Positions 4,889 to 46,041 of a stretch of DNA of 49,548 nt are shown piece after piece. The notes under the pieces are model-generated. The model did no database searches, was not told the origin of the DNA, and saw only the letters and a list, made by a program, of their open reading frames with translations. Every line of letters begins with the position of its first letter. The stretch's first letter is position 1. The stretch is from positions 1 to 49,548 of IMG/VR virus record IMGVR_UViG_3300025706_000008; one strand, 5' to 3'. The DNA comes from a virus. The translations under genes were made by a program, and so were the position numbers.

Positions 4889-5971
4889 ATGAAAACACCG
4901 TTAATTAATGGAATCAGCCAGACAGGTCTCGAGACCTACATGACCGCCCGTACTTACGACGCTTTGTACTGGCCGAACTTCTTCCCTCTGAAAACCGTTC
5001 CGACACTGGACGGAAAGACCATAGTCGGAAGCACGGGTAACCGTGTTGCCGCTTATATCATCAGTTATGATGCCACCACGCCGGAAATCAAGCGTAAGGG
5101 TGCAACGATCAAATATTTCGACATACCGAAGACGGCCGTTGCCATCCGTAAGTCGGAACGTGAGATCCTTGAACACCAAATCCTGAAGAACACCATCGGG
5201 ATGAACGCCGTGATTGAAGACATCTTCGCCGACAGCGACGTATGTTACAATGGCGTGCAGGGACGTATGGAATGGACTGCCCTTCAGTTGATTTCGGCCA
5301 CAAAATTCACCCTTTCGACCACAAACAATCCGCTGGGGATCATCAACGAGACCGCAGTGGATTCGGGCATGCCCGCGGCAAACAAAAAGCTTGTGACCGG
5401 CTTATGGTCGTCAGGCGGATCAACCGGCGTGCCTATCACTGACTTCAAAGCTGTTGCCGCCGCAGGGCGTACCGCTGGCGTAAAGCTGGCCTATGCGCTG
5501 ATGGATCGCACAGCCTACGATTACATGACCGCCTGCACCGAGTATGTCAATGCCGTGAAGCAAGTTCTGTCACTTGACACGACATACGGAGTGACGCCGC
5601 TTTCGACCGTTGACATCACCAACCGCGTTATGCGTTCCCTGGGACTTCCTGAAGTTGTTCTGATCGACACCTATGTTGATATCGAGGCAGCCACGGGCAC
5701 GCGTACGTCGACCAATCCGTGGAGTTCAAACCACGTGACATTCGTTCCCTCCATGCAGTGCGGCGATTTTTATGCTGGACCCATTGCGGAAGAAATCGAG
5801 AAACCTCTTGACGTTCTGCAGACGAAACGCGGCCCGGTGCTGGTGAGCATCCGTAAGGAGTTCAACCCGTCGGCTGTGCTTACGAAAGCCGAGGCCAACG
5901 TCTTCCCTTCATGGTCGAACGTAGACCAGTGCTACAGTCTTTATCTGGACAGTACAGCTACATGGTCATAA
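4889..5971 (+). CDS. Major capsid protein
   Basis: 360 aa, positioned after scaffold and decoration genes. The sequence resembles gpE-like major capsid proteins from memory. Confidence 0.7.
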   Translation: MKTPLINGISQTGLETYMTARTYDALYWPNFFPLKTVPTLDGKTIVGSTGNRVAAYIISYDATTPEIKRKGATIKYFDIPKTAVAIRKSEREILEHQILKNTIGMNAVIEDIFADSDVCYNGVQGRMEWTALQLISATKFTLSTTNNPLGIINETAVDSGMPAANKKLVTGLWSSGGSTGVPITDFKAVAAAGRTAGVKLAYALMDRTAYDYMTACTEYVNAVKQVLSLDTTYGVTPLSTVDITNRVMRSLGLPEVVLIDTYVDIEAATGTRTSTNPWSSNHVTFVPSMQCGDFYAGPIAEEIEKPLDVLQTKRGPVLVSIRKEFNPSAVLTKAEANVFPSWSNVDQCYSLYLDSTATWS

Positions 5972-7549: not shown

Positions 7550-8098
7550 ATGGCACAGCAGAAATACTTATACGGGATAAAATCCGTGAAATACGGCACG
7601 GTGTGCGCCACAGGCGATTCACCGTCCATGCCCGCTTCGGGCGACATGACATCATGGGCGCAAACCGTCCAAGGTTCATTAACCATCAGTGAGCAAGAAT
7701 CCACCGTGAAATATTTTTACGTGGAGGAAACAACCACTGCGGTTCACTCTATCGTCACCGACGCCGGTAACCTTACCGTCACATGGCGCGCTTACGACTG
7801 CACACCGGCACTCATCGCGGTGATGAAGGGCGGTATCAGTTCAACCGGTGACACTGGTTACCTGAGTTACTCCGGCCCTGACACCGTCGAGGCTAAAGAA
7901 CTCGCTCTGGAAATTACGTGTACCAACAATGCCGTATTTGAGATTTACAGGGCTTCATGCCTTGGCCGTTTCGACAGTGTTGTGGGACGTGAGAATTTGC
8001 TTGAGATGGAGGTCGTTGCCACGGCACTCGCACCCGCAACAACGGGCACGGACGACGGCGACCAGGCACCGTACAAGATCAAGTTGCCTAATTCATAA
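7550..8098 (+). CDS. Major tail (tube) protein candidate
   Basis: 182 aa, located just before the chaperone pair and tape measure. Followed by a strong terminator. Confidence 0.6.
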   Translation: MAQQKYLYGIKSVKYGTVCATGDSPSMPASGDMTSWAQTVQGSLTISEQESTVKYFYVEETTTAVHSIVTDAGNLTVTWRAYDCTPALIAVMKGGISSTGDTGYLSYSGPDTVEAKELALEITCTNNAVFEIYRASCLGRFDSVVGRENLLEMEVVATALAPATTGTDDGDQAPYKIKLPNS

Positions 8099-17007: not shown

Positions 17008-18393
17008 ATGCCACTATATGTAGGTACACATTCAACAGATTGCGTAAAAGTTTACAGGGGTATATATCCTTTTTGTAAGATATATCAGGGGTCAACGCTG
17101 AAATGGTGGGCTGCGGATTGTCAGGCGTGTGTGAAATACGGATACTTGTATAATCGTTTCGTGGTGACCGATTCACGCCATGTATATTCATCCGGCTGGC
17201 ACGTTCCGACAGACGCTGAATGGACTACCCTCACCGATTACCTCGGTACAAAGAGCAGTGACTATGATAATCCGTATGGGTATAAACTGAAGGAAACCGG
17301 ATTTGTGTATTGGAATAGTCCGAATACTGATGCAACAAATGAGGTGGGATTTTATGGACGTGGGTCAGGACATAGATTGTACACAAATGGCACGTTTGAA
17401 TTATTACAACAACAGTCATATTATTGGAGTTCATCCGTAAATTACGGTGATTATTACTGGGCTCGTCAATTATATTATAACCAGAATTTAATTCACCGTG
17501 GATATGCCGACCCGGAAAACGGAATGTCAATTCGGTTAATCAAAGACGATAGCACCCTTGTCGGTTATGTAGGCAACGACGGAAAGACCTATAACACGGT
17601 AAAAATAGGCAGTCAGGTATGGATGGCTGAAAATTTAGCAGAGACTGAATTTGCCGACCATAGCAAGATTCCGGTTGTTGAGGGTGCTACGACATGGACA
17701 GGATTGTTGACCGGGGGAATGTGTGCTTATGATAATGATTATACAAACGTGGGGTGTGGGGAAACGGAACCGGAACTTACGGAAGTTGAATATGGATTGC
17801 TGTATAATTGTTATGCAGCAACGGATGCGAGGTATATAGCACCGGCAGGTTGGCACGTGCCAACATGGGACGAATGGATTACATTATCTAATTATTTAGG
17901 TGGTGGAAATCATGAAGGTGGGAGTTTAAAAGAAACAGGATATACTTATTGGGATAGTCCGAATACAGGAGCAGATAATTCAACTGGTTTTTATGGTCGT
18001 GGTTCTGGCGCAAGAGTAATAGGTGGTGTTTTTCTATATCTTAATAAAAAAATGATTTTAGCAAGTTCAACTTCATCATCATCAACATGGATTATACCAC
18101 AGTTAAATAATGGAGATGATGATTTTCAGATAATGTCATCAGGTTCAGAATATTATGGTGCTGCCATTCGCCTTATCAAAGATGATAGCACCGACACCGG
18201 AACAATGGTAGATAACGATGGTAACATTTACCCAACCGTAAAAATTGGCGATCAGGTATGGATGGCGAAAAACCTGAAAACAACCAAATACCGCAACGGG
18301 GACGCCATACCGGAAGTGACAGATAATTCAGCGTGGGTGGCATTGACAACGGGTGCGCTTTGTGCCTATGACAACGACTGGGATAACGTATAA
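17008..18393 (+). CDS. Tail fibre or receptor-binding candidate built from two tandem FISUMP-like domains
   Basis: Two copies of YG(Y/L)LYN...GWHVPT..EW..L..YLG...LKETG..YW.SPNT...GFYGRGSG...IRLIKDDST...DG..Y.TVKIG.QVWMA.NL...CAYDND. Confidence 0.7.
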   Translation: MPLYVGTHSTDCVKVYRGIYPFCKIYQGSTLKWWAADCQACVKYGYLYNRFVVTDSRHVYSSGWHVPTDAEWTTLTDYLGTKSSDYDNPYGYKLKETGFVYWNSPNTDATNEVGFYGRGSGHRLYTNGTFELLQQQSYYWSSSVNYGDYYWARQLYYNQNLIHRGYADPENGMSIRLIKDDSTLVGYVGNDGKTYNTVKIGSQVWMAENLAETEFADHSKIPVVEGATTWTGLLTGGMCAYDNDYTNVGCGETEPELTEVEYGLLYNCYAATDARYIAPAGWHVPTWDEWITLSNYLGGGNHEGGSLKETGYTYWDSPNTGADNSTGFYGRGSGARVIGGVFLYLNKKMILASSTSSSSTWIIPQLNNGDDDFQIMSSGSEYYGAAIRLIKDDSTDTGTMVDNDGNIYPTVKIGDQVWMAKNLKTTKYRNGDAIPEVTDNSAWVALTTGALCAYDNDWDNV

Positions 18394-18399: not shown

Positions 18400-18471
18400 G
18401 CCACGCATCGCAAACCGTGACAATCTATATTACCACAAACAGATAATCAATATTCTATTACCACGAAATTT
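18400..18471 (+). promoter_or_regulatory. Conserved bipartite element, copy R2 (gccacgcatcgcaaaccgtgaca, with gaaatttg 65 nt downstream)
   Basis: 20 of 23 positions match R1 and R3. The 17-nt core is identical and the spacing is the same. Lies 27 nt upstream of the first glycan-island gene. Confidence 0.55.
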
Positions 18472-18497
18472 GTCACAAATCCACAACGTGGTAAATC

Positions 18498-19148
18498 ATG
18501 ATCATACGAATTGACGACTTTCCGACCGGTATTAGTACCGTTCCCGGCGATTTATCTGATTATTTCAGAATATTTGATTGCTTTGAACGCCACAACATTC
18601 AATACTATCTTGGCATTGTGCCTGAACTTCTGCGACGTTTCGTAAACAGCGACGACATCGAAAGGCTGACCCGGTATAAATGCATGGTTCCGGTCATGCA
18701 CGGTTACGATCATCTCTTTGACCGCATGAACCGGATACTCATCGCAAACAATGACCCTGAAAATACGCGCGGACTTGTCAGCGGCACGTGGTTTGAATTT
18801 GAAACACGCAATCAGCAATGGGTAAATGACCACCTGACCCAGGGACGCGAATATCTTGAAAACGTATTCAACCGCATTATTGTTCATTACATCCCTGTCT
18901 GCAACCGTATAGACGAGAAGCTGATAACCGGGCTCATTAATTCCGGTTTTGTGTATGTTTTCACAATCGAAGGCAACCGCAGACAGGTACAACGGATGGA
19001 TACGATCACTACGGAATATTACGGACAACTGGAAGACATGTCGCGCCGGTATGAATCACTTTGTCTGCACATAACTTGGGAAGTTCAGACGATTAAGCGT
19101 ATTGGATTCGCCGCATGGAAAAGACAATTTCATAAAATGATTGTATGA
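18498..19148 (+). CDS. Polysaccharide deacetylase-like protein (DUF2334/NodB-like)
   Basis: IRIDDFP and MHGYDH motifs. Confidence 0.45.
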   Translation: MIIRIDDFPTGISTVPGDLSDYFRIFDCFERHNIQYYLGIVPELLRRFVNSDDIERLTRYKCMVPVMHGYDHLFDRMNRILIANNDPENTRGLVSGTWFEFETRNQQWVNDHLTQGREYLENVFNRIIVHYIPVCNRIDEKLITGLINSGFVYVFTIEGNRRQVQRMDTITTEYYGQLEDMSRRYESLCLHITWEVQTIKRIGFAAWKRQFHKMIV

Positions 19149-19951
19149 TACCGCACATTGCAAATTTTTACTGGAACAGGGAAACGCCGTTAAGCTATCT
19201 GCGACTGCTTACGTTGCGCACCTTCCGGCACCATCACCCGGATTGGAAGATGCGACTTTGGACATCGGAAAGCAATATGGTAAATGTATGGAGTGGCAAC
19301 CTTGAACAACAGGATTTTCAGACCGGCGGCATAAAAGATTACATTACTCAAGTTTCGTATTTGGGTATTGAAACGGTGGTATTCAATGAACCTATCACTA
19401 AACAGCTGGCACCGACTTTCATCAGCGACATAGTGCGGTTTCGCAGCATTGACGGCGGGGGCTGGTTCTTCGACCTTGATCAGATATTTTGCCGGTCGTT
19501 TGACGATTTATGCGACTGCGATTTTATCCTTGGCGGTTACAAAGACGTGATGTATTGCGGGGTGGTAGGGGCGTCGCATTCGTCAAATGCACCCGCGATT
19601 ATCTGTGAAAGACAGAAAGGATTAATTGCAAATAGGTTAACGCTATATAACGGTCTTGGAATATTGCTTCTGAGGTCAGTGCTTCAGTCGCATGACTTCG
19701 CCATATTGACGTCCGGGGAAAAACACAGGATGCTGCCGCACCAATATTTTTACCCAGTGCCGGAAAGCGCACGGGTGGAACAGATATATAACGGAGTGCT
19801 TCAAATACCGGCTTCGCCTGATAATTATGCCGTTCATTGGTACGGAGGTCACCCGCTTTCACAGGAGTTCAACCGGAAATATACGCCGGAATTTGCCAAA
19901 ACCAGCAACGATTCAATCAGTTTTTATTGTCGAAAAATTGAAATATTATGA
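19145..19951 (+). CDS. Glycosyltransferase with a DXD sugar-binding region (GT32-like)
   Basis: ISDIVRFRSIDGGGWFFDLDQ matches the SD..R......GG.Y.D.D signature. Confidence 0.55.
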   Translation: MIPHIANFYWNRETPLSYLRLLTLRTFRHHHPDWKMRLWTSESNMVNVWSGNLEQQDFQTGGIKDYITQVSYLGIETVVFNEPITKQLAPTFISDIVRFRSIDGGGWFFDLDQIFCRSFDDLCDCDFILGGYKDVMYCGVVGASHSSNAPAIICERQKGLIANRLTLYNGLGILLLRSVLQSHDFAILTSGEKHRMLPHQYFYPVPESARVEQIYNGVLQIPASPDNYAVHWYGGHPLSQEFNRKYTPEFAKTSNDSISFYCRKIEIL

Positions 19952-20235
19952 GACTACAATTAGACACCACAAACAAGTTAATCAAGGTTGAAGAATCAGT
20001 AAACCTTGGAGAATTTTTTGAAGTTCTTGACAGACTGTTGCCCGGCAATAAGTGGAAAGAATTCAAACTTGAAACACAAACCTTAATAAACTGGAGTAAT
20101 CCGATTGTAATAACTGACCCTTGGTATCCTTGGCGTCCTTGGTATGGAGAACCGATTACTGTTTCATGGACTGGAACAACATCACCGACAGATGTAACAA
20201 CTTTAAATCAAGGCGTGTATAACGTTGAAATATGA
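19948..20235 (+). CDS. Hypothetical small protein inside the glycan island (W/P-rich, then T/S-rich C-terminus)
   Basis: ATGA overlaps at both ends. No enzyme motifs. Confidence 0.5.
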   Translation: MRLQLDTTNKLIKVEESVNLGEFFEVLDRLLPGNKWKEFKLETQTLINWSNPIVITDPWYPWRPWYGEPITVSWTGTTSPTDVTTLNQGVYNVEI

Positions 20236-20828
20236 GACGTTACGGTAACGAATATGGCGGGTACGTCCTTCCGGAGGGGATGATCAACGGAAATAGTGTC
20301 GTCTATTCTTTTGGTTTGGGTGAAGATGCAAGTTTTGACATTGACGTTATGGCAAGTCATTCCTGCCCGGTTCACATTTTCGACCCGACACCCAGGGCTG
20401 AAATCTATTACAACATTCACCTTTCGACGTTCACAAATTTCATATTTCATCATTATGGCCTTTGGTTGGAAGATACTGAGAAACGCTTTTATTTTCCGGC
20501 AAACCGAAGTCATGTCAGCTGTTCGATTGTCAACCTTCAGAATACAAAGGAGTATTTTATCGGGCAGGTAAAGCGACTTCAGACGATAATGCGGGAGCTG
20601 AACCACGAAAGAATAGACGTTCTGAAAGTGGACATCGAAGGGGCTGAAAGCGAAGTAATACCCGATATGATCCGGTCGGGAATCCGTCCCGGAATCATCT
20701 GTATTGAGCTGCACAAAGGATGCGAAAACATAGCAGCAATGATAGAGGGATTCGGCTATTCTGTATTTCACAAAGGACATACATTAACATTTATTCATGA
20801 AGATAGCAATTTGCCTGATAGTTTATAA
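20232..20828 (+). CDS. FkbM-family SAM-dependent methyltransferase
   Basis: VVYSFGLGEDASFD and the hallmark IDVLKVDIEGAE. Confidence 0.7.
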   Translation: MRRYGNEYGGYVLPEGMINGNSVVYSFGLGEDASFDIDVMASHSCPVHIFDPTPRAEIYYNIHLSTFTNFIFHHYGLWLEDTEKRFYFPANRSHVSCSIVNLQNTKEYFIGQVKRLQTIMRELNHERIDVLKVDIEGAESEVIPDMIRSGIRPGIICIELHKGCENIAAMIEGFGYSVFHKGHTLTFIHEDSNLPDSL

Positions 20829-21618
20829 CGGAAAGCCATTCATTGATTTGTGGCTGAACCATTATCTTAATTGCCCGTCAATTGATTATGTCTGCGTGGC
20901 CGAAGGAGCAACACGTAACATGATGACCGCGCTTGACCTACCATCTGTCAGAAGCAACGACGGGACAATGGAAAGCATGTTTAACAATTACGGGAACAGT
21001 AAGATCTTATGTGTCGCGGCGAATACCCCGCACCCGGAGAAAAACGAGCAGATGAACGCCGCAATCGGACTGGTCCCGGACGATACCGATTATCTGATCA
21101 TTAGCGGGGTAGATGAATTTTACCACCATTTCGACTTGCAATGGCTGAAGGGTGAACTTGCGGACAAAGGATATACATATGCGGAGTTCCGCCATTTTCA
21201 TTTTTGGAAACACGCGGACGTTATTGGCGTGGGAGGTCGCGGGTACGGCTACAACATGCCTGCCGATTCTGTATTCCGGTATTGGCCTGGATCTCGCATG
21301 ACAAAGCACCGACCGTTGACGATGACCGACCATCAGGGACGGCCGCTGAAATCATTGAAGCCGCTATTAGCAGGAAGCAACCCGGTAATGAATTACCACT
21401 ACAGCTACGTTACTGAAAAAATGGTATATGAAAAAATGCTGTATTATACCATAACGATGCGCCACGATTACATGCCGTGGTACTGGCAATGCTGGAAGGC
21501 ATGGACGCGGGAAAACCGGCAGGATATTGAAAGCCGGTGGAGCATTCATCCTTCAGTTCCGGGAGCCACGACCCGCGACATCAGCCTGGTTCATCCGATT
21601 AATACCGCCCTGTTATGA
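20797..21618 (+). CDS. Glycosyltransferase-like protein (GT-A or GT2-like)
   Basis: N-terminal IAICLIVYNG strand and a GVDEF acidic motif. Weaker evidence than for the neighbouring genes. Confidence 0.45.
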   Translation: MKIAICLIVYNGKPFIDLWLNHYLNCPSIDYVCVAEGATRNMMTALDLPSVRSNDGTMESMFNNYGNSKILCVAANTPHPEKNEQMNAAIGLVPDDTDYLIISGVDEFYHHFDLQWLKGELADKGYTYAEFRHFHFWKHADVIGVGGRGYGYNMPADSVFRYWPGSRMTKHRPLTMTDHQGRPLKSLKPLLAGSNPVMNYHYSYVTEKMVYEKMLYYTITMRHDYMPWYWQCWKAWTRENRQDIESRWSIHPSVPGATTRDISLVHPINTALL

Positions 21619-22370
21619 AGATCATCGGACTGACACGGATACGTAACGAGGCGGAGATAATTCAGGATACGCTTAATCACATGGGTACGTTTTGCGATGA
21701 AATATACGTTTATGATGATTGTTCAACAGACAATACCGCAGACATCTGCCTGAAACATCCAAAAGTTGCGAAAGTTCTGATTGGTGAATCATGGGACATA
21801 GACCGGGCGCGGGCCGAATGGCAGAACCGGAACGAACTGCTGAAACTGGCCCAATGCTATGCCACACCGGATGATTGGTTTGTTTACATGGACGCGGACG
21901 AGCGTATTGAATGGGATTGGTCAAAACTCAGAGCATACCCGGACGACGTGACGGGCGTTGTCATGTGGTTGTTTGACTTTTATATAACACCGCATGATGT
22001 TGACCTACATTACACACAGCGCCGGTGGTTAGGCCCGGAGTTCCGGCCTATACTGATGGCATTCCGTAACATCTCCGGGACAGGCTATTCACAGCCTGAC
22101 CAACGTGAGGTTACATTACCGCGCGGAAAGATTATCTATGATGGATTTGTCAAGCATTACGGAAAGGCAATAAGCGTCGCACAATGGAATCGCACGGTTG
22201 ACTATTACACTCGCTGTTTTCCGAAATATTCAGCCAAGTGGGAAAAGCGACGTGGAAGGGCTGTTCACATTATCAGCTCTTTTGGCCGTTCACTCATCAC
22301 GTGGGATGAACGGATAGATAAGGGAATATTGCTGACACCACAAATTGAAAACCAAAACATATACCTATGA
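21615..22370 (+). CDS. Family 2 glycosyltransferase
   Basis: YVYDDCSTDNT and YMDADE (DXD) motifs. Confidence 0.65.
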   Translation: MKIIGLTRIRNEAEIIQDTLNHMGTFCDEIYVYDDCSTDNTADICLKHPKVAKVLIGESWDIDRARAEWQNRNELLKLAQCYATPDDWFVYMDADERIEWDWSKLRAYPDDVTGVVMWLFDFYITPHDVDLHYTQRRWLGPEFRPILMAFRNISGTGYSQPDQREVTLPRGKIIYDGFVKHYGKAISVAQWNRTVDYYTRCFPKYSAKWEKRRGRAVHIISSFGRSLITWDERIDKGILLTPQIENQNIYL

Positions 22371-23254
22371 AAATTCTTTTAACAAACAACCACCTTCAGC
22401 ACCTGATGGGGTCAGAGACATTTACGCACACGCTGGCAAAGGCAGCCATTGATTACGGGGCAGAAGTATATCTGCATACCTTTTTTGCCGGGCAGGTAAG
22501 CAAGCGGATATTTGCACTTGGCGTGAAACCGGCAAAGATGACCCGGTATAACCTGGTACTAGCCAACCATAACAGTTGCATAAAGCATTGCCATAACATG
22601 GGATGGGGGCCGGTCATTCAGACCTGTCACGGAAAAGTACCACAACTAGAACAACCGTCACCGTTGGCCGTTAAATATGTTGCCATAACGAAAGAGGTGC
22701 AACAGCACATCATGAACCTCACAAACCGGGAAGATGTTCAGATCATTTACAACATGATCGACACCGACCGGTTCACATTGCAAAATCCGGTCAACAAAAA
22801 ACCAAAGTGGGCATTGTCGTTGTCAAAATCGCTGGACTTCAACAAAGAACTTGAAACGGAATTAAAACGCCACGGCATTACCTTGTTTTACGCTCATTAT
22901 TCCGCTGCGCCAATATGGGACATTGAAAAACTGATCAACGATGTTGATTTTGTTATCAGCCTGGGGCGCGGCGTTATGGAGGCGATGGCCTGCGGGCGTC
23001 AGTCCATGATCATTGACCGCCGTGCATATCAGGAGCAGATGGCAGATGGTATGCTTACACCGTCGAATGTTAACCAGTTGATTGAAACGAATTTCTCAGG
23101 CCGGTACAACAAAATAAAAAAGCCGCTGCCGGAGTTGATTGACGAGATGCTGGCCGATTATAGCGCAGATGATTCCGAACCATTACGGAATTGGGCACTG
23201 AAGGAACTCAATTATCGCACGCAGTTCGAAAAATACCTGAAAATATTACCATGA
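22367..23254 (+). CDS. GT-B fold glycosyltransferase (GT4-like)
   Basis: MKILLTNNH...GSETF N-terminus and a GRGVMEAMACGR C-terminal motif. Confidence 0.55.
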   Translation: MKILLTNNHLQHLMGSETFTHTLAKAAIDYGAEVYLHTFFAGQVSKRIFALGVKPAKMTRYNLVLANHNSCIKHCHNMGWGPVIQTCHGKVPQLEQPSPLAVKYVAITKEVQQHIMNLTNREDVQIIYNMIDTDRFTLQNPVNKKPKWALSLSKSLDFNKELETELKRHGITLFYAHYSAAPIWDIEKLINDVDFVISLGRGVMEAMACGRQSMIIDRRAYQEQMADGMLTPSNVNQLIETNFSGRYNKIKKPLPELIDEMLADYSADDSEPLRNWALKELNYRTQFEKYLKILP

Positions 23255-24033
23255 GAATCGCCGTCGTAATGCCATATTTCAAGCGGTTCCGCCAGTTGTA
23301 TAATACACTGATGTCGATCAGGATGACACGGCACCCGGATTATGATGTTGTGGTGGTATATGAAACGGATGATGAAATTCTAAGATTACGCGATTTGTCG
23401 CCTAACATTCATCTGTTGAAGATCGACCGCAAAGAGAATGTTGCCACCATGCAGGACATTGCCTGTAATGAGGGGTTTCTTTTTGCGCTGCAGAATTTCA
23501 ATCCCGACGCGGTGATGGTGCAGCATTGCGAATGTGCGCACCGAGGCGATATTCTCAAATATGTTGCCGACAATATCACCGATAACGATTACCTGACATT
23601 CAGTTGCTTTTCAATCAATGAGGAAAATTACAAAGACCCGCAACTTGACATTGACGCTGTCATCCGGCAGAACAATAAATCTGTCATCACTAATTTTGAT
23701 AATGGCTGGTACAATCATCCAACTTACCGGGCAGTGTATTATGAATTTTGCGCCGCAATGACAACGGGTAACCTGAAGCGGATGAACGGTTATGATGAAC
23801 GCTTTGCCAATGGCTATGGGTACAATGACAACTATTTTTTTCACCGGGTAAAACTCATGCGATTAAAGCCACGGATAGTGACTGATTGCATTGTCATTCA
23901 CCAGTGGCACGCTAAGCCGGAGAATAACGGACGCGATGTGGCAAAACTGATAGGCGTTAACAGGGATTTATATTCGCAACTATCAAAGACAAACGAGATA
24001 AAAGCCGTACACACATTCACGGCGGATTTATAA
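23251..24033 (+). CDS. GT-A glycosyltransferase (GT2 or beta-1,4-galactosyltransferase C-terminal-like)
   Basis: IAVVMPYFKR start and NGYDERFANGYGYNDN motif. Start moved to ATG 23251 (ATGA overlap) instead of the track's 23191. Confidence 0.55.
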   Translation: MRIAVVMPYFKRFRQLYNTLMSIRMTRHPDYDVVVVYETDDEILRLRDLSPNIHLLKIDRKENVATMQDIACNEGFLFALQNFNPDAVMVQHCECAHRGDILKYVADNITDNDYLTFSCFSINEENYKDPQLDIDAVIRQNNKSVITNFDNGWYNHPTYRAVYYEFCAAMTTGNLKRMNGYDERFANGYGYNDNYFFHRVKLMRLKPRIVTDCIVIHQWHAKPENNGRDVAKLIGVNRDLYSQLSKTNEIKAVHTFTADL

Positions 24034-24051
24034 ACACAAAAAAAAAGAAAA

Positions 24052-24390
24052 ATGGAGAATTTAAAAAAAGCACTTGGGAAGATTTTCAACACCGCTCAGG
24101 TTGTTGACCGTGCACTTGAAGACAAGAAAATCAAAGGTATGGAATGGGTCGGAATCGGGGCGTCCGCGATCGCTTGGGTGTGGATATTCCGCAACTTTGA
24201 CCTCATTGCCGAAGACCTGAAAAGCTTACAGGAAGATCAGCTTCCCGAAATGAACGCGTGGGTATCAGAGAATTTTGATCTTCGTAATGATGTTGCCGAG
24301 GGCATCGTCGAGGAGGCCATAGCGATGCTGGCGATGTTCGCCTCCATCATGATCAAGACAAGGGTTGAAACTCCCGTTACCCCGGCCTGA
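24052..24390 (+). CDS. Hypothetical membrane protein
   Basis: Hydrophobic segments WVGIGASAIAWVWIF and AIAMLAMFASIMI. Confidence 0.5.
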   Translation: MENLKKALGKIFNTAQVVDRALEDKKIKGMEWVGIGASAIAWVWIFRNFDLIAEDLKSLQEDQLPEMNAWVSENFDLRNDVAEGIVEEAIAMLAMFASIMIKTRVETPVTPA

Positions 24391-24501
24391 GATCACTCCC
24401 GACGGCGGCACGTTGCCGGGGGGACATAATGGTATCCGTTGGTTCGGATTGAAAATAATCATTCCGATAAAAAAAATATTGCACTTTTTTAGACGTAAAA
24501 G

Positions 24502-25104
24502 GTGAAAGACCGGATATTGATTCTGGCACCGCACACTGACGACGGTGAACTTGGCGTTGGTGCCACTGCAGCAAAATTGACCGATGATGGTAATGATGTT
24601 TTTTATGTCGCATTTTCATGGTGCGGCAATGAACGGCTGAAAGACGAAGCCAGGAAAGCAACCGGAATAATAGGCGTAAAAACAGAAAACCTGATCATGT
24701 TAGATTACCAGGTACGACATTTTGAATATCACCGGCAGGAAATTCTTGACGATATGATCCGGTTGAGGGATGACATCCGGCCTGGATTGGTGTATTGTCC
24801 ATTGATTAATGATATACACCAGGATCATCAGACGATAGCCGCAGAAGCCATAAGGGCTTTTAAATTCAGTACAATACTTTGTTATGAGTTGCCGTGGAAT
24901 AATATTCAATTCAATGCAACGGCATTTGAAATTGTTAGTTTTGATAATCTGATGCTGAAGAAACAGGCTGTGATTGCATACAGATCACAATCCGACCGGC
25001 CCTATTGCACACCTGATTTCATATATTCACTTGCTACTGTCAGGGGTATTCAATGCGGCGTACAATATGCAGAATCCTTTGAAGTTGTGAGATGGATACG
25101 GTAG
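24502..25104 (+). CDS. PIG-L / LmbE-family N-deacetylase
   Basis: ILILAPHTDDGELG and HQDHQ motifs. GTG start. Confidence 0.75.
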   Translation: MKDRILILAPHTDDGELGVGATAAKLTDDGNDVFYVAFSWCGNERLKDEARKATGIIGVKTENLIMLDYQVRHFEYHRQEILDDMIRLRDDIRPGLVYCPLINDIHQDHQTIAAEAIRAFKFSTILCYELPWNNIQFNATAFEIVSFDNLMLKKQAVIAYRSQSDRPYCTPDFIYSLATVRGIQCGVQYAESFEVVRWIR

Positions 25105-25757
25105 CCATACATCAGCCTAATTTCATCCCTTGGGCCGGGTATTTTCACAAGATTGCGAATTGCGATTTGTTCGTTTTGTTGGATGATGCCGAATACACAA
25201 AAAGCGGATATATAAACCGAAACCGGATAAAGACACCAACGGGATGGCAATGGCTTACCGTCCCTGTTCATTATTCGGGCCGGTCACGCCAACAGATCAG
25301 TGATGTTCAAATTGTCAATCCCGACAAGACATACCACAAGATTACCGGAGCATTGCAGGCAAATTACGGACGTGCGCCGTATTATCATAAAGTGATGGAA
25401 TTGTTATTGCCGTTATTTGCCGGTGATAAACTGGCTGACCTGAACGAATCAATCATACGGGTAATAACGGAATACATTGGAATACGCACGCCGGTCATCC
25501 GCGCCAGTGATTTGAACGTAAAAGGTGAGGCAACGGAACGGCTTATCAGTATTTGCCAGATGACAGGTGCAAGATGTTATCTTGCAGGCACCGGAAGCCG
25601 CAACTACCAGGATGATCAGTTATTCATGAATGCCGGTATTGAGGTAAAGATTCAGCAGTTCGATCATCCCGCATATAATCAGTTATGGGGTGGATTCACA
25701 CCAAAATTGTCGATTCTGGACTGGCTGTTCAATGCCGGAAAAAATGCCATGTTATAA
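25092..25757 (+). CDS. WbqC-family protein
   Basis: N-terminal VAIHQPNFIPWAGYFHKI and LLDDAEYTK are typical of WbqC-like proteins. Confidence 0.7.
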   Translation: MDTVAIHQPNFIPWAGYFHKIANCDLFVLLDDAEYTKSGYINRNRIKTPTGWQWLTVPVHYSGRSRQQISDVQIVNPDKTYHKITGALQANYGRAPYYHKVMELLLPLFAGDKLADLNESIIRVITEYIGIRTPVIRASDLNVKGEATERLISICQMTGARCYLAGTGSRNYQDDQLFMNAGIEVKIQQFDHPAYNQLWGGFTPKLSILDWLFNAGKNAML

Positions 25758-25827: not shown

Positions 25828-25870
25828 CCTCATTACGAATGCGCTGCTCTACCAGCTGAGCTAAAGAGGC
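25828..25870 (-). pseudogene. tRNA-Thr(CGU)-like 5' fragment: acceptor 5' strand, D-arm and anticodon loop only
   Basis: The minus strand reads GCCTCTT-TA-GCTCAGCTGGTAGAGC-A-GCGCA-TTCGTAA-TG. There is no T-arm and no matching 3' acceptor strand. Confidence 0.6.
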
Positions 25871-26023
25871 AAATGCCAGTGTTTTCTGGGCATTCAGCTA
25901 TTTTTACACCATTCTGTCTGCACGTTCCGACGCGATAAATACGTCTGATTGTTGCAAAATGTTGTAAAATAACGGTTTTACGGTCATTAAGCGCGAAGTA
26001 ATTAGAGAAATTGAAATGAAATG

Positions 26024-26053
26024 AAAGGCCGGTCATTCCGGCTTTTTCTTTTT
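26024..26053. terminator. Bidirectional intrinsic terminator at the convergence of the late operon and the minus-strand regulator gene
   Basis: aaaggccgg-tcatt-ccggctttt stem-loop, then tttttcttttt on the + strand and a T-rich tract on the - strand. Confidence 0.6.
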
Positions 26054-26479
26054 CAGCAGTTCATCAAGATACCGATTCACCTCCTCTTCATCCTTCACAT
26101 CCGGTCGCCTGGTCACCCGCGCCGTATTCACAACATGATCGACATTGTGAAGTTCATGCAAACAGCGGATATTCACCGGCACGTTAATCAGACCATTTTC
26201 ACCCAGACGCACATCGTATTGGACCTCCCAAAATTCATCCAATACAATCATTTCGGGCAATTCATACACATTTGCCGTTACCCGTTCCGGTGAAAATTCC
26301 GGGCAATACAACGAAAGACCATCGCGCGCCTCATACATAAGCTGACCAAAGATTTCATTGATAGTGGTATATGAAACGCCGATTTTATCCGCAAAAATCT
26401 GCTGTGTCTCAAAACCGTATGTTTTTTTCTGCCATTCAAAGACATCGCGGATACGGTTATTTATTTCAAAATCAGGCAT
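26033..26479 (-). CDS. HTH transcriptional regulator (XRE/CI-like N-terminus, unknown C-terminal domain); the only credible minus-strand gene
   Basis: The segment QQIFADKIGVSYTTINEIFGQ looks like a helix-turn-helix. Divergent from the early genes. Confidence 0.6.
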   Translation of the reverse strand: MPDFEINNRIRDVFEWQKKTYGFETQQIFADKIGVSYTTINEIFGQLMYEARDGLSLYCPEFSPERVTANVYELPEMIVLDEFWEVQYDVRLGENGLINVPVNIRCLHELHNVDHVVNTARVTRRPDVKDEEEVNRYLDELLKKKKPE

Positions 26480-30019: not shown

Positions 30020-32323
30020 ATGACATACGAGGACTTTTTAATAACTAAACAAAAAAAAATAATTGAATCAGGATTTGAAGTTAATGATTCAGATTTGAAT
30101 TCTGTATTATTTAACTTTCAGAAGTTTGTCGTAAAGTACGCATTAAAAGCCGGTAAATATGCAATATTCGCAGATACCGGAATGGGAAAAACACTAATGC
30201 AACTTGTTTGGGCTGAAAAGGTAAGTCAAAGAACAGAACATCCCGTTATCATATTTGCACCACTGGCAGTAAGCGAACAAACGATAGAAGAAGGCAGAAA
30301 GTTTGGTATTAGGGTACAACGATACCCATATCCATCCGAAATACAAATAACGAATTATGAGCAGATTGATAACGTTGATTTATCTAAGTTTTCAGGCATT
30401 GTATTAGATGAATCTTCAATACTAAAAAACAATACTGGTGTTTATAGAAACAATCTTATTGAAAGGTGTAAAGATATACCATATAAACTTTGTTGCACCG
30501 CTACACCGTCGCCAAACGACCCGATGGAATTAGGCAATCATGCCGAATTTTTAGACGTGATGAATTATAATGAAATGTTAGCTATGTACTTTGTACATGA
30601 TGCAGACAGTACACAACAGTGGCGATTGAAGGGGCACGCAATAGATAAATTTTACGAGTTTGTTGCATCATGGGCTATAATGTTTAATAAACCATCTGAT
30701 ATCGGATTCAGTGATTCTGGATTTGATTTACCTGCATTAATAATGAATGAAAGGCAAATAAGTACACCACTTCCTGAGGGCTTTTTATTTGGTGGAATTG
30801 CCGTTTCTGCAACCGATTTCAATTCATCATTAAGAGATACACAAATCGAAAGAATAAGAGAAGTTGTTAATATAATAGAAAATGATATTAAAGATGAACA
30901 GGTAATTATCTGGACAAAACAGAATATCGAAGCTGATTCAATTTACAGTGAACTTATCAAGCGCGGGTATAATTGCCGAAATGTTCAGGGGTCAGATTCA
31001 CCCGAATCAAAACGCGATAATTTACTTGGATTTGCACATAAGCAATACCAGATTCTTATTTCAAAAACAAAGATTGCCAGCTTTGGAATGAACTTTCAAA
31101 ACTGTCATAATCAGATATTCGCTTCAGTCGATTTCTCATTTGAATCAACATATCAGGCCATACGCCGGTCATGGAGATTCATGCAGGAAAAACCCGTAAG
31201 TGTATGGCTTATCACAACTGACAGAATGATTAATGTTTTAAAAACCATAAACGACAAAGAATACCAATTCAAACAAATGCAACATAAAATGACAAAAGCA
31301 GTAAATAAACATTTAGCCGGAGAAATCACTCAATTTTCTGATTCATCTGATGATGTAAAAACAGATAAGTATTGGATAATGCTTGGTGATTGTGTACAAA
31401 GAATCAAGGAACTGAAAGATGAAAGTATTGATTTTTCAGTATTCAGCCCGCCGTTTGCAGACCTATATACGTATTCAAATTACATTGAAGATATGGGAAA
31501 TGTAGCTGATTATAATGAATTTGTTCAGCATTTTTCATATTTGGTAACTGATTTATTAAGGGTAATCAAGCCGGGCAGATTAGTTGCTGTTCATTCGATG
31601 AATCTTCCAACACTTAAAAGCCGTGATGGATACATCGGAATACGTCGTTTTTCTTCAACCATTGAAGATATTTTTGAGAATGCCGGATTTTTTCTTCATT
31701 CTGAATTTACCATCTGGAAAGATCCGCTATTGGCCGCCGTACGTACAAAAGCCCTCGGATTAGCACACAAACAAGTAACAAAGGATATGAGCATGATACG
31801 CATGGGATTATCTGATAAAGTTACAGTATTTAAAAAGCCAGGAGAGAATCAAGTACCAATTCAATTAAAAGACAAACGTTTTACAACGTATAAACCAATT
31901 CATGAATATGATAAGTTCCCGGTAACAGTTGATGGATTCAATGAGTATTGGGGATTTGACCCGGAAAGTAAATATTCAAGGATTGAACAATACAGCCATC
32001 AGGTATGGCAAAGATACGCATCTCCGGTCTGGATGGATATAGACCAGACAAATGTATTGCAATATACAACTGCCCGCGACGAAAAGGATGAAAAACACAT
32101 TTGTCCTCTTCAGCTCGGAGTTATCGAAAGGCTGATTCTTCTTTATTCAAATGAAGGTGAAACCGTTTTAAGCCCGTTTGGAGGTATCGGTTCTGAAGGA
32201 TATCAATCAATCAAAATGGGCCGTAAATCAATCAGCATTGAATTAAAGCCATCCTATTTTGAGATTAACAAGCGCAACCATCGTGGAGCTATTGAATCAC
32301 TTGGTCAACTAAGCTGGATATGA
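30020..32323 (+). CDS. Fusion protein: SNF2/DEAD-like helicase (N-terminal) plus beta-class N6/N4 DNA methyltransferase (C-terminal)
   Basis: Helicase motifs ADTGMGKT, VLDESS, CTATPSPN and QAIRRSWR. Methyltransferase motifs SPPF (IV) followed by LSPFGGIGSEG (I). Confidence 0.8.
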   Translation: MTYEDFLITKQKKIIESGFEVNDSDLNSVLFNFQKFVVKYALKAGKYAIFADTGMGKTLMQLVWAEKVSQRTEHPVIIFAPLAVSEQTIEEGRKFGIRVQRYPYPSEIQITNYEQIDNVDLSKFSGIVLDESSILKNNTGVYRNNLIERCKDIPYKLCCTATPSPNDPMELGNHAEFLDVMNYNEMLAMYFVHDADSTQQWRLKGHAIDKFYEFVASWAIMFNKPSDIGFSDSGFDLPALIMNERQISTPLPEGFLFGGIAVSATDFNSSLRDTQIERIREVVNIIENDIKDEQVIIWTKQNIEADSIYSELIKRGYNCRNVQGSDSPESKRDNLLGFAHKQYQILISKTKIASFGMNFQNCHNQIFASVDFSFESTYQAIRRSWRFMQEKPVSVWLITTDRMINVLKTINDKEYQFKQMQHKMTKAVNKHLAGEITQFSDSSDDVKTDKYWIMLGDCVQRIKELKDESIDFSVFSPPFADLYTYSNYIEDMGNVADYNEFVQHFSYLVTDLLRVIKPGRLVAVHSMNLPTLKSRDGYIGIRRFSSTIEDIFENAGFFLHSEFTIWKDPLLAAVRTKALGLAHKQVTKDMSMIRMGLSDKVTVFKKPGENQVPIQLKDKRFTTYKPIHEYDKFPVTVDGFNEYWGFDPESKYSRIEQYSHQVWQRYASPVWMDIDQTNVLQYTTARDEKDEKHICPLQLGVIERLILLYSNEGETVLSPFGGIGSEGYQSIKMGRKSISIELKPSYFEINKRNHRGAIESLGQLSWI

Positions 32324-33838: not shown

Positions 33839-33997
33839 ATGCGCAACAATATTAACGTATATGCAAATTGGCACTTTAAAATACATGGGTGGCATATCGG
33901 TGCGAGTCCGAACGTCTTTGCAAACTTCACGTTTGTATTGTTGCGCAGTGACCACCCTTTTTTATTTACCTCAAATCGTTAAGTTATGCGCAACAAT
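33839..33997 (+). promoter_or_regulatory. Element C: atgcgcaacaat at 33839 and 33986 (the latter is the HNH start codon) plus an inverted copy tattgttgcgca at 33936-33947
   Basis: Read directly. A T7 run lies at 33958-33964. Confidence 0.5.
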
Positions 33998-34447
33998 TCA
34001 GACGAAAAACAATCCTATGCTGAGAAGCTGAAAGATCCACGCTGGCAGAAAAAACGCCTTCAGATATTAAACAGGGACAAGTGGAAATGCAAATTATGTG
34101 GTGATGAAAAAACGTCACTACAGGTTCACCATAAGGAATATATAAACGGCAATGATCCTTGGGATTATGATAATTCTATGCTTATAACAGTTTGCGAACA
34201 TTGCCATTATGAAATTGAATATTTAAATAAAAGAGGAATAGATTTTAATCAAATATTATCTATTTATAAAGCAGATGGTTGGAACAGTGGTTCTCGAATA
34301 ATGTTTATTTCTCAATCAAGTGGTATCTGTTCTATGGTTATATATGATGATGAAGATAAAAAAATAATCGGATATAATCTAAGATATGATATACCTGAAA
34401 TTATAAAAATTCTCAAAAAAACACTAAATGGCAAAGAGATTCATTGA
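33986..34447 (+). CDS. HNH endonuclease
   Basis: CKLCG...LQVHHKEY...CEHCH motif set. Confidence 0.8.
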   Translation: MRNNSDEKQSYAEKLKDPRWQKKRLQILNRDKWKCKLCGDEKTSLQVHHKEYINGNDPWDYDNSMLITVCEHCHYEIEYLNKRGIDFNQILSIYKADGWNSGSRIMFISQSSGICSMVIYDDEDKKIIGYNLRYDIPEIIKILKKTLNGKEIH

Positions 34448-36868: not shown

Positions 36869-37861
36869 ATGAAAATTCTATTGATTACGATGAACAAAGC
36901 CGACGCGACCAGCTTTTACAGGGCTGCGGGCGTCGTGCGTGACCTTGAGTCCCAGACGGGCATCACAATCAACGTCCAGGACTGGCAAGACCAGAACATC
37001 ATGTGGCCAGTACTGATAAATTACGACCTGGTATGGATGCAACGGCCCGTGAGCAATGAAGCCGTAAACACCGCGAAGTACATGCGGCAAATGGGAATCC
37101 CGCTGTGGGTGGAATACGACGATGACCTTTTCAACCTGCCAACGACGCACGACCGCTATTCCGTATTTCAGGCAGCGCGTCAAAACATCATCACACTCCT
37201 TCAGATGGCCGCCGTCGTTACGGTATCGACACCCGTCATTAAGGAAAGCTACGAGCCGTATAACGATAACATTGTGGTTATTCCTAACGCCATACAGGAT
37301 GAGATGCTCGTTCCGGCAGAGGTGCCAGTGGGCCGGGTGATGTTGTACCGGGGCATGAAATCACACGAAGATGATGTGTTTGCCTACAATCAGCATTTCC
37401 GAAAGATAATCAGCTCCGGTGCCGAGGTGGTATTCATGACCGGCTTCAACCCGTTGCGATACCTGGGGCGTTGCACGATCATCGACAGCCGCGACATTTA
37501 TCATTATTTCAATTATCTGCGTGACACGCGCCCGCTGGCATTCCTGTTCCCGATGATCGAAAACCAGTTTAACCGCAGCCGGTCAAACATCTGCTGGCTG
37601 GAGGCGACAATGGCAGGGTCGGTGATCATCGCACCCGACTGGCCCGAATTCCACCATCCGGGAATAATACACTGCAATGAGAAGAACTTTCACGAGGTAG
37701 CCACGGCCGTATGGAATGGCAAATACGACACCGAAGATTTGTACCACAAAAGTTACAATTACATTGCCGACAATCTGAAATTAAGCACGGTGAATAAGAT
37801 GAGAGTTGAAATCATTAACAACATAACCAATGGAAAAGCAAATAATCAAGTGCAGAATTGA
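36869..37861 (+). CDS. GT-B fold glycosyltransferase-like protein, acceptor unknown
   Basis: MKILLITMNK N-terminus and ICWLEATMAGSVIIAP C-terminal motif. 330 aa. Confidence 0.45.
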   Translation: MKILLITMNKADATSFYRAAGVVRDLESQTGITINVQDWQDQNIMWPVLINYDLVWMQRPVSNEAVNTAKYMRQMGIPLWVEYDDDLFNLPTTHDRYSVFQAARQNIITLLQMAAVVTVSTPVIKESYEPYNDNIVVIPNAIQDEMLVPAEVPVGRVMLYRGMKSHEDDVFAYNQHFRKIISSGAEVVFMTGFNPLRYLGRCTIIDSRDIYHYFNYLRDTRPLAFLFPMIENQFNRSRSNICWLEATMAGSVIIAPDWPEFHHPGIIHCNEKNFHEVATAVWNGKYDTEDLYHKSYNYIADNLKLSTVNKMRVEIINNITNGKANNQVQN

Positions 37862-38087
37862 CGTTTCAAAGATTGACAAAAAACGGCTACACAAGGGAGA
37901 AAAGGGTATTTATTGCGATTTCACACTGATTGAAAACCGCAACGAATACAGCGATTTCATGATTGTTGAAGACATTACAGCCGATGAACGCAAAGGTGGA
38001 AAGAAAGGAACCATTCTGGGGAATGCTAAAAATGTGGTGAAAAATACATCCGTTACCGAATCTGATAATGATAACATACCATTCTGA
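37830..38087 (+). CDS. Small basic protein with an SSB-type acidic C-terminal tip (SDNDNIPF)
   Basis: 85 aa. The terminal DNIPF resembles the bacterial SSB C-terminus DDDIPF. Confidence 0.5.
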   Translation: MEKQIIKCRIDVSKIDKKRLHKGEKGIYCDFTLIENRNEYSDFMIVEDITADERKGGKKGTILGNAKNVVKNTSVTESDNDNIPF

Positions 38088-38836
38088 TGAGTGAAACAAT
38101 TAACTGGAGTGGTTACGAGTGGCTGACACGGGAGCGGTGGGGATCGATCCATCCCAGTAAGTCGTGGAACTGGTATGATCCAACGGCTATTGAAATAAAC
38201 GATGCCGGTCAGCTACGGTTGAAAATACACCGGAATCCACGTGACTTTGATATTAACGGAAAGATTATTCACAGCGAGTATGGCGCCGGGCTGATTTGTT
38301 GTGATCGGGAGTTCGGATTTGGACATTTTCAGATTGAAGCAATGTTGCCATCTGGTAACTGTCTGTGGCCTGCATGGTGGATGTACCCTCAGCATAAATG
38401 GCCGCCGGAAATTGACATTATTGAGGCATACAGCAAACAGACCGGATACAGGAAATATTCATGGCTACACAAGTATTTTCCACGATGGTTCGATGATGTA
38501 CGGTCGTGGAACATACAAAGTTGCGTGCACACCCGGACAGAGGCGAAGATCAATCAGATACCGGCACGGAATCCCGATCTTGAAGATTATAACGATGACC
38601 CGTCGGCAGGGTTTCACAAGTATGAGATGTTCTGGAGCCAGACGGTTATCAGCTTTTCAATAGATGGTGTATGTGTGCGGCAGGTACTTGACCGAAAGGT
38701 ACTCGATCACTTGGCAAATTATACACCGATGATGGTCATCCTGAATAATCACATTGACGGATTTAACAGAGATAAGTTTGATGTTGATAGTGTCACGCCG
38801 TTTGTAATTAACTATTTCAGATATACGCCGTTATGA
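38087..38836 (+). CDS. Glycoside hydrolase family 16 (beta-glucanase or laminarinase-like)
   Basis: CLWPAWWMYP followed by EIDIIE, which fits the E-[LIV]-D-[LIVF]-x-E catalytic signature. No signal peptide seen. Confidence 0.7.
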   Translation: MSETINWSGYEWLTRERWGSIHPSKSWNWYDPTAIEINDAGQLRLKIHRNPRDFDINGKIIHSEYGAGLICCDREFGFGHFQIEAMLPSGNCLWPAWWMYPQHKWPPEIDIIEAYSKQTGYRKYSWLHKYFPRWFDDVRSWNIQSCVHTRTEAKINQIPARNPDLEDYNDDPSAGFHKYEMFWSQTVISFSIDGVCVRQVLDRKVLDHLANYTPMMVILNNHIDGFNRDKFDVDSVTPFVINYFRYTPL

Positions 38837-40102: not shown

Positions 40103-40333
40103 ATGAAAAGAATAATTGAAATATTAGCCAAAGCGGCTGGTACAGATGAGAAAACAATCACTGACAACAGTGACATATATTGGATTACTCCAGAGCAAGC
40201 TTTGGAAGCCATGAAACGCTTCGGGGAATTAGCTTTTACAGCGGGTTTCTTCTATGCCAATAAGGAGGATAATATTTGGTCAACTACACATCATATGTAT
40301 GATGAATGGTTAAAAGAACAGGAGGAGGAATAG
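40103..40333 (+). CDS. Small hypothetical protein, paralogue family member 1
   Basis: AAGGAG lies 8 nt upstream of the ATG. C-terminal ...THHMYDEWLKEQ. Confidence 0.55.
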   Translation: MKRIIEILAKAAGTDEKTITDNSDIYWITPEQALEAMKRFGELAFTAGFFYANKEDNIWSTTHHMYDEWLKEQEEE

Positions 40334-40335
40334 AA

Positions 40336-45986: not shown

Positions 45987-46041
45987 CAATTTACCGCCAT
46001 TTCTGAAAATCAATACCGGAAAACATCATTGAAATTTACCG
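45965..46041 (+). promoter_or_regulatory. Conserved bipartite element, copy R3 (24 nt identical to R1, plus gaaatttaccg with gaaattt 65 nt downstream of the t at 45966, the second nt of the box)
   Basis: Overlaps the last codons of the methyltransferase gene. Box 2 lies 26 nt upstream of the portal GTG. Confidence 0.6.

Follow-up and report, generated by a model that had tools for sequence, protein, structure and literature searches.

A putative late glycan-building cassette in a probable Bacteroidota phage, with virion proteins as candidate acceptors

Here we describe a group of genes, called the island, in a viral DNA of 49,548 nucleotides (IMG/VR record IMGVR_UViG_3300025706_000008, positions 1 to 49,548; this whole stretch is the window). 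The island covers positions 18498-25757 and encodes nine predicted glycan enzymes. We tentatively read it as a self-contained late cassette for building a glycan, through which the phage would glycosylate its own virion proteins autonomously, and we give this reading slightly less than an even chance. We favour virion proteins as the acceptor because the island carries a putative late element, belongs to one operon with lysis genes in relatives and has its core placed in the head module of a second phage lineage; because it has no membrane partners, is retained in a genome that lacks an integrase and is nearly absent from bacterial genomes; and because the nearest relatives of its glycosyltransferases act on proteins.

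Results

A 21-nt element shared with the capsid and portal operons

The window (49.5 kb) has exactly three copies of the 21-mer CACRCATCGCAAACCGTGACA, always on the plus strand (at 3546, 18402 and 45968), against 0 expected by chance. They precede the scaffold and capsid operon (3546-3566), the island (18402-18422) and the portal gene (45968-45988), and each is followed ~43 nt downstream by a box of the form GAAATTT(G/A)(T/C)C, which we take to resemble the -7 promoter box of Bacteroidota. At the island this box reads GAAATTTGTC and aligns with GAAATTTACC of the other two copies. A sequence-only reading of the window had described a bipartite motif common to these operons; the motif is real, and stronger than that description, in that a full 21-mer and a downstream box are present in three copies. 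The terminator that had been placed near 26024-26053 was likewise found, as a hairpin with a T-run.

18402-18422, plus strand: 21-nt element CACGCATCGCAAACCGTGACA upstream of the island, putative late-activator site
18465-18474, plus strand: GAAATTTGTC box, 24 nt before the ATG, putative Bacteroidota-type -7 promoter box
18465-18474, 3609 and 46031: GAAATTTG box, predicted promoter box of the three operons
26023-26047, plus strand: terminator hairpin and T-run that closes the unit, shared with a convergent gene at 26033-26479 (minus strand)

We compared the island with related phage loci, numbered here with the prefix L. The element, with one or two changes, is found upstream of the glycan-gene operon in four of them (L035, L036, L007 and L003), and an equivalent of the -7-like box was found in L035, L036 and L007. 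We regard the element as a candidate late-activator site that may define a small late regulon of three operons. Because the capsid and portal operons have it too, and because the glycan genes belong to an endolysin operon in relatives, the cassette would be expressed late, together with virion and lysis genes.

Another repeat near the start of the island, TATTACCAC, was considered as a shared signal and rejected, as its 18 copies against 11.5 expected amount to no genome-wide enrichment. A scan for sigma-70-type promoters was uninformative (28 found, 24 expected).

Nine glycan enzymes in a tightly coupled gene block

All open reading frames (ORFs) of the island lie on the plus strand, as had been noted, but they number 11 (I1-I11) and not ten. 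The six ATGA overlaps reported at 19145, 19948, 20232, 21615, 22367 and 23251 are all exact; I4 and I5 further overlap by 32 nt and I10 and I11 by 13 nt. The nine enzymes are five glycosyltransferases, one FkbM methyltransferase, two deacetylases and one WbqC protein, and they are accompanied by I3 and I9, which have no family.

18498-19148, plus strand: I1, DUF2334 deacetylase-like protein, 216 aa; core member
19145-19951, plus strand: I2, DXD GT-A glycosyltransferase, GT32/GT8-like, retaining-type, 268 aa; core member
19948-20235, plus strand: I3, 95-aa ORF without family match in profile scans
20232-20828, plus strand: I4, FkbM-family S-adenosylmethionine (SAM) methyltransferase, 198 aa; core member
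20797-21618, plus strand: I5, GT2-like GT-A glycosyltransferase, 273 aa; core member
21615-22370, plus strand: I6, GT2 glycosyltransferase, 251 aa
22367-23254, plus strand: I7, compact GT4-like GT-B glycosyltransferase, 295 aa
23251-24033, plus strand: I8, GT2-family GT-A glycosyltransferase, 260 aa
24052-24390, plus strand: I9, 112 aa, two weakly hydrophobic stretches, no family match
24502-25104, plus strand: I10, PIG-L/LmbE de-N-acetylase, 200 aa, GTG start
25092-25757, plus strand: I11, WbqC-family protein, 221 aa

The enzyme families first named from motifs hold, and are strengthened by profiles and models; the original list was incomplete in that I5 (20797-21618) had not been recognised as an enzyme. 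I1 matches PF10096 (E 5e-7, over the Pfam cut-off), and its residues D6, D7, H68 and H72 (Asp-Asp and His-x3-His) are invariant across 10 homologues. The match of I2 alone to PF04488 is weak (E 0.016; 16 bits against a cut-off of 23). This profile is matched by six of nine I2 orthologues, however, and homologues at 33-42% identity match PF04488/PF04572, most of them PF04488. The D110-x-D112 motif of I2 is invariant in 49 homologues. I4 is recognised by both PF05050 (E 5e-11; 43.5 bits, cut-off 22.7) and TIGR01444 (E 1e-10; 41.8 bits, cut-off 37.7).

I6 matches PF13704 (E 8e-13) and PF00535 (E 4e-6), and its sequence matches in the PDB are 7msk (ThuS), GmaR and SunS. I5 has no Pfam match of its own; PF00535 is carried by its distant homologues, and its profile search matches GmaR and SpsA. 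I8 matches PF02709 weakly, PF00535/PF02709 are carried by homologues at 35-40% identity, and further homologues of I8 occur in L007-9 and L036-37. On these matches I5, I6 and I8 are all assigned to GT2: I6 directly, I5 through its homologues and model, and I8 through its homologues.

I7 scores slightly below the PF13439 cut-off (E 4e-6; 27.4 bits against 28.5) and, at 295 aa, is short for a GT-B enzyme; those of its homologues at 35-42% identity that were tested reach 42-45 bits with PF13439, above the cut-off. Its family comprises 1316 representative homologues, and the ones tested are often fused to GT2 domains. I10 matches PF02585 (E 6e-15; 56 bits against a cut-off of 28) and has both APHTDDGE and HQDH in its translation, and its phage homologues are annotated as glucosaminyl deacetylases. 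I11 covers 216 of the 218 positions of PF08889 (E 6e-75, 252 bits). A sequence search of the PDB detected no solved structure for I11/WbqC, such searches with I2, I7, I11 and the DUF2334 profile returned nothing useful, and no functional information on WbqC and DUF2334 was found in the literature.

Vibrio phages likewise pair PIG-L with WbqC: the two genes adjoin in the unrelated Vibrio phage V-YDF132 (L039, 7327-8741), where a glycosyltransferase gene, a ParB-like gene and a terminase gene lie nearby. The pair seems to travel together in phages.

The island enzymes are predicted to be soluble

We scored hydrophobicity with a 19-residue Kyte-Doolittle window and a membrane threshold of at least 1.6. 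None of the island enzymes has a 19-mer at or above this value, a transmembrane segment or a signal-like N-terminus. I9, previously described as the one small transmembrane protein of the island (24052), is present, yet its hydrophobicity is borderline, with a maximum of 1.58. The island had also been said to lack export, polymerase, priming and nucleotide-sugar genes, and we found neither a Pfam or NCBIfam family match of these kinds nor a multi-pass protein in it. The same pattern extends to its relatives: no ORF with at least three hydrophobic segments was found in ten related cassettes, and no annotated priming, flippase or polymerase gene in the window cassette or these ten. A PHROG scan of the ten island proteins I1-I10 gave no match to GtrA, GtrB or GtrC. 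By gene content, the island does not look like a Wzx/Wzy- or ABC-dependent surface polysaccharide locus.

The cassette has relatives in other phages and a mobile core

A search for the same gene order in other phages found it in the sister phage L035, which has an identical order of enzyme genes at 57-94% protein identity. Farther relatives (L003, L007-9 and L036-37) carry cassettes that are shorter or otherwise composed, in the same genomic place. The conservation of enzyme order at this protein identity in L035 argues for purifying selection. In L003, L007-9 and L036-37 the cassette ends with an I9 homologue, and none was found in L035 by tblastn.

I3 had been proposed as an acceptor or adaptor from its small size and composition. 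We rejected this candidate: I3 is absent from L035, which keeps the enzyme genes, and no homologue was found in any other related locus.

The core of the cassette consists of I1 (DUF2334), I2 (GT32-like), I4 (FkbM) and I5 (GT2-like). All four genes occur together in L003-L006, L008, L010, L011 and L015. Partial cores were seen in L007, with a truncated I1, in L013/14, with FkbM only inside a fusion, and in L036/37, with I1 and I2 and without I4 and I5; the sequences of L009 and L012 end within the core. In two relatives the glycan genes share an operon with lysis functions, in the order cupin, 130-aa protein with a single transmembrane segment, CHAP endolysin and then glycan genes (L036, 8122-9357; L007, 6762-7997), and in L036 the CHAP and DUF2334 genes, the latter being the first of the glycan genes, have 4 nt in common. 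The CHAP gene of the window lies away from the island, at 1348-1809.

A second lineage, B (L004-6, L010, L011 and L013/14), has no BLAST-detectable protein in common with the window beyond the core. Here the I1 and I2 domains are found within proteins of 715-1065 aa that also bear FkbM (L004, 4870-7800; L011, 5718-8915; L013, 7331-9478), and these fusions of FkbM, DUF2334 and GT32-like domains point to a functional link among the core enzymes. L010 has the I1-like and I2-like domains in two adjacent proteins of 506 and 509 aa, and additionally encodes a GDP-mannose 4,6-dehydratase and an epimerase/reductase. In L010, L011 and L013/14 the core directly follows a head maturation protease and a 321-521-aa protein that is, by gene order, a putative capsid protein; its identity is unconfirmed, as among the copies of 321-325 aa that of L010 has no PHROG or Pfam match and that of L013 matches one PHROG of unknown function. 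A homologue of this protein is present in L004, where the upstream region is cut off. Judged from these distributions, the four-gene core is mobile between phages.

Outside such phage loci the genes are rare. Relatives of I5 were found in 3 of 185,579 species genomes, all on Bacteroidota metagenome-assembled genome (MAG) contigs, and none was found in IMG/VR. Against 50,697 phage records, neither the island DNA (megablast) nor I2 (tblastn) gave a match.

These observations bear on the idea that the island is silent cargo, a recently captured and non-functional fragment of a host polysaccharide locus. As that idea would predict, O-antigen and capsule loci typically have gene families like those of the island. 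All 11 ORFs are intact, however, and many are translationally coupled; the enzyme order is kept in L035; catalytic motifs are invariant; the GC content of the island equals that of the remaining genome; and the core is present in many phage contigs as against only those 3 species genomes. The sequence-only reading had named such a fragment, with near-identical host homologues, as a way in which it could be wrong, and no recent host copy was found. We consider silent cargo scarcely credible.

The island lies between late genes and a former integration site

Downstream of the island, the 265 nt between WbqC and the terminator hold one further feature.

25833-25884, minus strand: attP remnant, the 5' ~40 nt of a tRNA-Thr(CGT)-like sequence

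No complete tRNA or other RNA gene was found in the window with Rfam and ARAGORN, and the tRNA-like stretch is a fragment. It is 94% identical to the sequence that immediately precedes the integrase genes in L007, L008 and L009, and this match places the island between the late genes and attP-int. The window ORFs that were scanned include no integrase, and by this comparison the window genome would have lost it. The convergent gene at 26033-26479 (minus strand), which is HTH-like, is retained in the window genome.

The position brings in an unlikely but serious alternative, remodelling of the host envelope. The soluble enzymes would then act on lipid-linked intermediates of the host, such as the core of lipopolysaccharide or lipooligosaccharide (LPS/LOS), capsule or O-glycan, and the flippase and ligase of the host would export the product; the altered surface would lead to superinfection exclusion, receptor masking or serotype conversion. 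The slot between late genes and attP-int is the classic position of host-conversion genes, and it is occupied by P22 gtrABC and other converting cassettes. Several further findings weigh in the same direction and against a virion acceptor. In temperate relatives the cassette stands between tail-fibre or lysis genes and attP-int, and the window has its attP remnant. The cassette is accessory, because no island gene was found in L016 and L021, with capsid proteins ~50% identical to that of the window, over a stretch that reaches ~10 kb beyond the tail-tip gene; its content also varies between close relatives. The core has moved between phages whose structural proteins are unrelated, which a conserved host substrate explains more easily. 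I5 resembles TarS and the prophage-encoded TarP, soluble GT-A enzymes that act on a lipid-linked polymer. Assembly in the cytoplasm on a non-lipid acceptor had been proposed partly from the missing export genes; the soluble multi-enzyme cassette agrees with that proposal, but missing export genes are on their own no sign of a cytoplasmic target, since a lipid-linked product could leave through the export machinery of the host. The promoter role of the 21-nt element is deduced from sequence comparison, and virion proteins are candidates as acceptors. Finally, the C-terminus of the window capsid protein (4889-5971) is co-linear with those of the ~50%-identical relatives that lack the island, and has no extension.

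Other evidence speaks against the envelope. The island has an upstream element in common with the capsid and portal operons, and in L036 and L007 the endolysin gene belongs to the operon of the cassette, with the 4-nt overlap in L036, which makes expression in a lysogen unlikely. In lineage B the cassette lies inside the head module. Its nine enzymes are far above the number in known conversion cassettes, I5 has hardly any host homologues, and the window genome retains the island without an integrase.

The comparison with gtrABC cassettes of P22 and SfV cuts both ways. These resemble the island in their tail-fibre/attP-int position and as accessory, swappable cargo of glycan enzymes, and the fold relation of I5 extends to the Staphylococcus aureus prophage enzyme TarP. 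The island differs in having no GtrA-, GtrB- or GtrC-like membrane proteins, in having many more enzymes and in running co-directionally with late genes, under a capsid/portal-type element and, in two relatives, in an endolysin operon.

Glycosyltransferase folds hint at possible protein acceptors

Profile searches and, for I2 and I5, Foldseek comparison of models support the glycosyltransferase and deacetylase families, and the AlphaFold2 (AF2) models of I2 (pLDDT 93) and I5 (pLDDT 88) both have GT-A folds. Foldseek matched I2 to GlyE, Legionella SetA and Lgt1, glycogenin, YeGT and UGGT. All of them are GT-A enzymes of the retaining type, and for most the acceptor is a protein or a glycan bound to protein. 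The viral models that superpose on I2, at a TM-score of 0.78-0.83, are fusions of a glycosyltransferase with a methyltransferase or sugar reductase from giant viruses (Mimiviridae-like); DXD-motif proteins of uncultured tailed phages were matched as well. For I5, Foldseek ranked the peptide S-glycosyltransferases SunS and ThuS first, and TarS/TarP, WrtF and SpsA next.

By sequence and by fold, I5 and I6 match SunS/ThuS and GmaR best, enzymes that are cytoplasmic and act on polypeptides. The match is at fold level only (~11-13% identity, TM-score ~0.45-0.5), the additional domains with which SunS and GmaR bind their substrates are absent, and the window phage, unlike those systems, has no glycocin or flagellin substrate gene. 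We take the likenesses of I2, I5 and I6 as fold-level leads on the acceptor and not as proof.

The same neighbours raise a cytoplasmic target other than the virion, either host proteins, as for the effectors SetA and Lgt1, or a soluble glycoconjugate. SetA, Lgt1 and YeGT are structural neighbours of I2, and the island has a GT4-like enzyme together with a PIG-L enzyme, a pair used in the bacillithiol, mycothiol and aminoglycoside pathways. I10 also scores against BshB1 (E 5e-15), but its 56 bits are far under the cut-off of 182.5, so that the equivalog level is not reached, and no island ORF has a BshC-like match. Nor does any island ORF match a cysteine ligase, inositol-phosphate or 2-deoxystreptamine enzyme family. 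Five glycosyltransferases point to an oligosaccharide and not to a small molecule, and late co-regulation with virion genes would leave little time for host takeover. We judge a target of this kind quite improbable.

DNA as the acceptor

Sugar hypermodification of DNA, in which hydroxymethylated bases are decorated to escape restriction, is very improbable in our judgement. Clusters of phage GT-A/GT-B enzymes that act on 5hmC do exist and some lie near structural genes, according to a preprint (Pyle et al., bioRxiv 10.1101/2023.12.21.572611), and in this grouping they resemble the island. The PIG-L/WbqC pair of V-YDF132 lies between replication genes and the ParB-like gene, and the window phage encodes a Mom protein and an N6/N4 methyltransferase, which could also be read in favour of a DNA acceptor. 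These clusters nevertheless differ from the window, where no ThyS, 5mYOX or C5 methyltransferase was found among the ORFs scanned. A Pfam and PHROG scan of the 22 larger non-island ORFs, which left out several smaller ORFs of the virion region, detected no ThyS-like protein, TET/JBP-like dioxygenase or C5 methyltransferase; the methyltransferase domain found was of the N6/N4 type only. The island stands under a capsid/portal-type element and outside the replication module, and a methylated, de-N-acetylated multi-sugar chain is not among the DNA glycans described in the parts of the preprint available to us (bioRxiv 10.1101/2023.12.21.572611).

The phage genome and its probable host

The two ends of the window have a 51-nt repeat in common and a repeat-rich gene runs over the junction; the window is an essentially complete phage genome, probably in circularly closed form. 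We recognised genes for the large terminase, portal, head-morphogenesis and major capsid proteins, the tape measure, a 1201-aa tail-tip protein and a 461-aa fibre, and both distal tail proteins carry a Fib_succ_major domain. The phage is siphovirus-like and very probably infects Bacteroidota. We assign this host because relatives of the island are seen in MAG contigs of Bacteroidales and Flavobacteriaceae, and because the integrases of related temperate phages have Phage_int_SAM_5 and Arm-DNA-bind_5 domains. Such integrases are typical of Bacteroidota.

Other genes of the window were noted in passing. A gene with many Cys-x-x-N-T-F-G repeats, at ~48200-49548 and continuing at 1-276, may encode a fibre or decoration protein. 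A sixth glycosyltransferase-like protein is encoded outside the island at 36869-37861, directly 3' of the primase/helicase gene (phrog_7162, E 4e-25, phi92 gp164-like), and shortly 3' of it lies a gene for a protein with a GH16 glycoside hydrolase domain (38087-38836). The Mom-family protein is encoded at 41393-42157 (PF25680, E 8e-68) and suggests Mom-type adenine modification of the phage DNA; at 30020-32323 a SNF2/DEAD-type helicase is fused to an N6/N4 DNA methyltransferase domain. Proteins with HNH, PI-PfuI-like and T5orf172 domains (33986-34447, 40306-40668 and 43266-43871), spread over the early region, are probably homing endonucleases.

Discussion

Glycosylation of virion proteins, the reading that we favour, would proceed as follows. 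A phage late regulator would act on the 21-nt element and the -7-like box and switch on the island jointly with the scaffold/capsid and portal operons. The nine soluble enzymes would work in the cytoplasm and use nucleotide sugars of the host. A short oligosaccharide would be built by the five glycosyltransferases (one retaining GT32/GT8-like, three GT2-like and one GT4-like) and O-methylated by FkbM; the DUF2334 and PIG-L enzymes would remove N-acetyl groups, with de-N-acetylation being partial, and WbqC could modify the product further. The acceptor would be one or more virion proteins, and progeny particles would carry a glycan coat. The analysis itself establishes which genes are present, the folds of I2 and I5, the solubility of the enzymes, the upstream element with its sharing and conservation, and the mobility of the four-gene core; we infer the late timing, the order of reactions and the virion acceptor. 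Candidate acceptors are the capsid protein (4889-5971), a 182-aa protein (7550-8098) and the fibre (17008-18393). In the capsid protein, the difference from the relatives without the island is a 5-aa insert, DTTYG, in a S/T-rich loop (residues ~228-245), and to regard it as the glycan acceptor site is pure speculation.

Known viral systems offer two points of comparison. The mycobacteriophages Che8, Corndog and Myrna glycosylate their virions (Freeman et al. 2023, as cited in PMC12363180, PMC12619734 and PMC11256854), and in Che8-type phages the acceptor sites are at the C-termini of capsid and tail-tube proteins, according to PMC12619734. The island resembles these systems in having soluble phage glycosyltransferases and no export machinery, and actinobacteriophages have PIG-L glucosaminyl deacetylase genes with 26-29% identity to I10. 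It differs from the Che8 type in several ways: the host phylum is another, I2 has no detectable homologue in the isolated-phage collection, and nine enzymes stand against two putative glycosyltransferases in Maravista, the cited genome used for comparison. The window cassette follows tail fibres and has its own putative late element, and the window capsid protein, the one virion protein compared, has no C-terminal acceptor extension. With I2 and I10 compared, homology to the actinobacteriophage systems extends to PIG-L only, I2 being without a match.

Giant viruses have autonomous glycosylation machinery, with glycans on chlorovirus capsids and on the fibrils of Mimiviridae (reviewed in PMC9614988). 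The likeness to them lies in the superposition of I2 on fusion proteins of Catovirus, Fadolivirus and Hyperionvirus, in the lineage B fusions of FkbM, DUF2334 and GT32-like domains and in the GDP-sugar enzymes of L010. The hosts of giant viruses are eukaryotes, however, I2 identity is ~20%, and common descent of the clusters is not implied.

More broadly, and somewhat more tentatively than for the island itself, we suggest that the portable four-gene core and lineage-specific enzymes together constitute an autonomous virion-glycosylation system of Bacteroidota phages, under a late element of its own and analogous in function to that which glycosylates the capsids and fibrils of giant viruses. 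The accessible literature yielded no account of this gene set or of the four-gene core, and none of glycosylated virions in Bacteroidota phages. To our knowledge, actinobacteriophages are so far the only phages shown to encode glycosylation of their virions, which alters antibody recognition. The island provides a concrete candidate late regulon, marked by the 21-nt element ahead of three operons. If the host envelope were the target, the island would stand out among conversion cassettes by its size and its late expression. If virion proteins are the acceptor, virus-encoded glycosylation of particles would extend from actinobacteriophages to Bacteroidota phages, and glycan coats on phage particles would be commoner than thought and would evolve modularly, like surface-antigen loci. 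This would bear on the persistence of phages in animal-associated and engineered communities, on immune or lectin recognition and on how host range is read from genomes.

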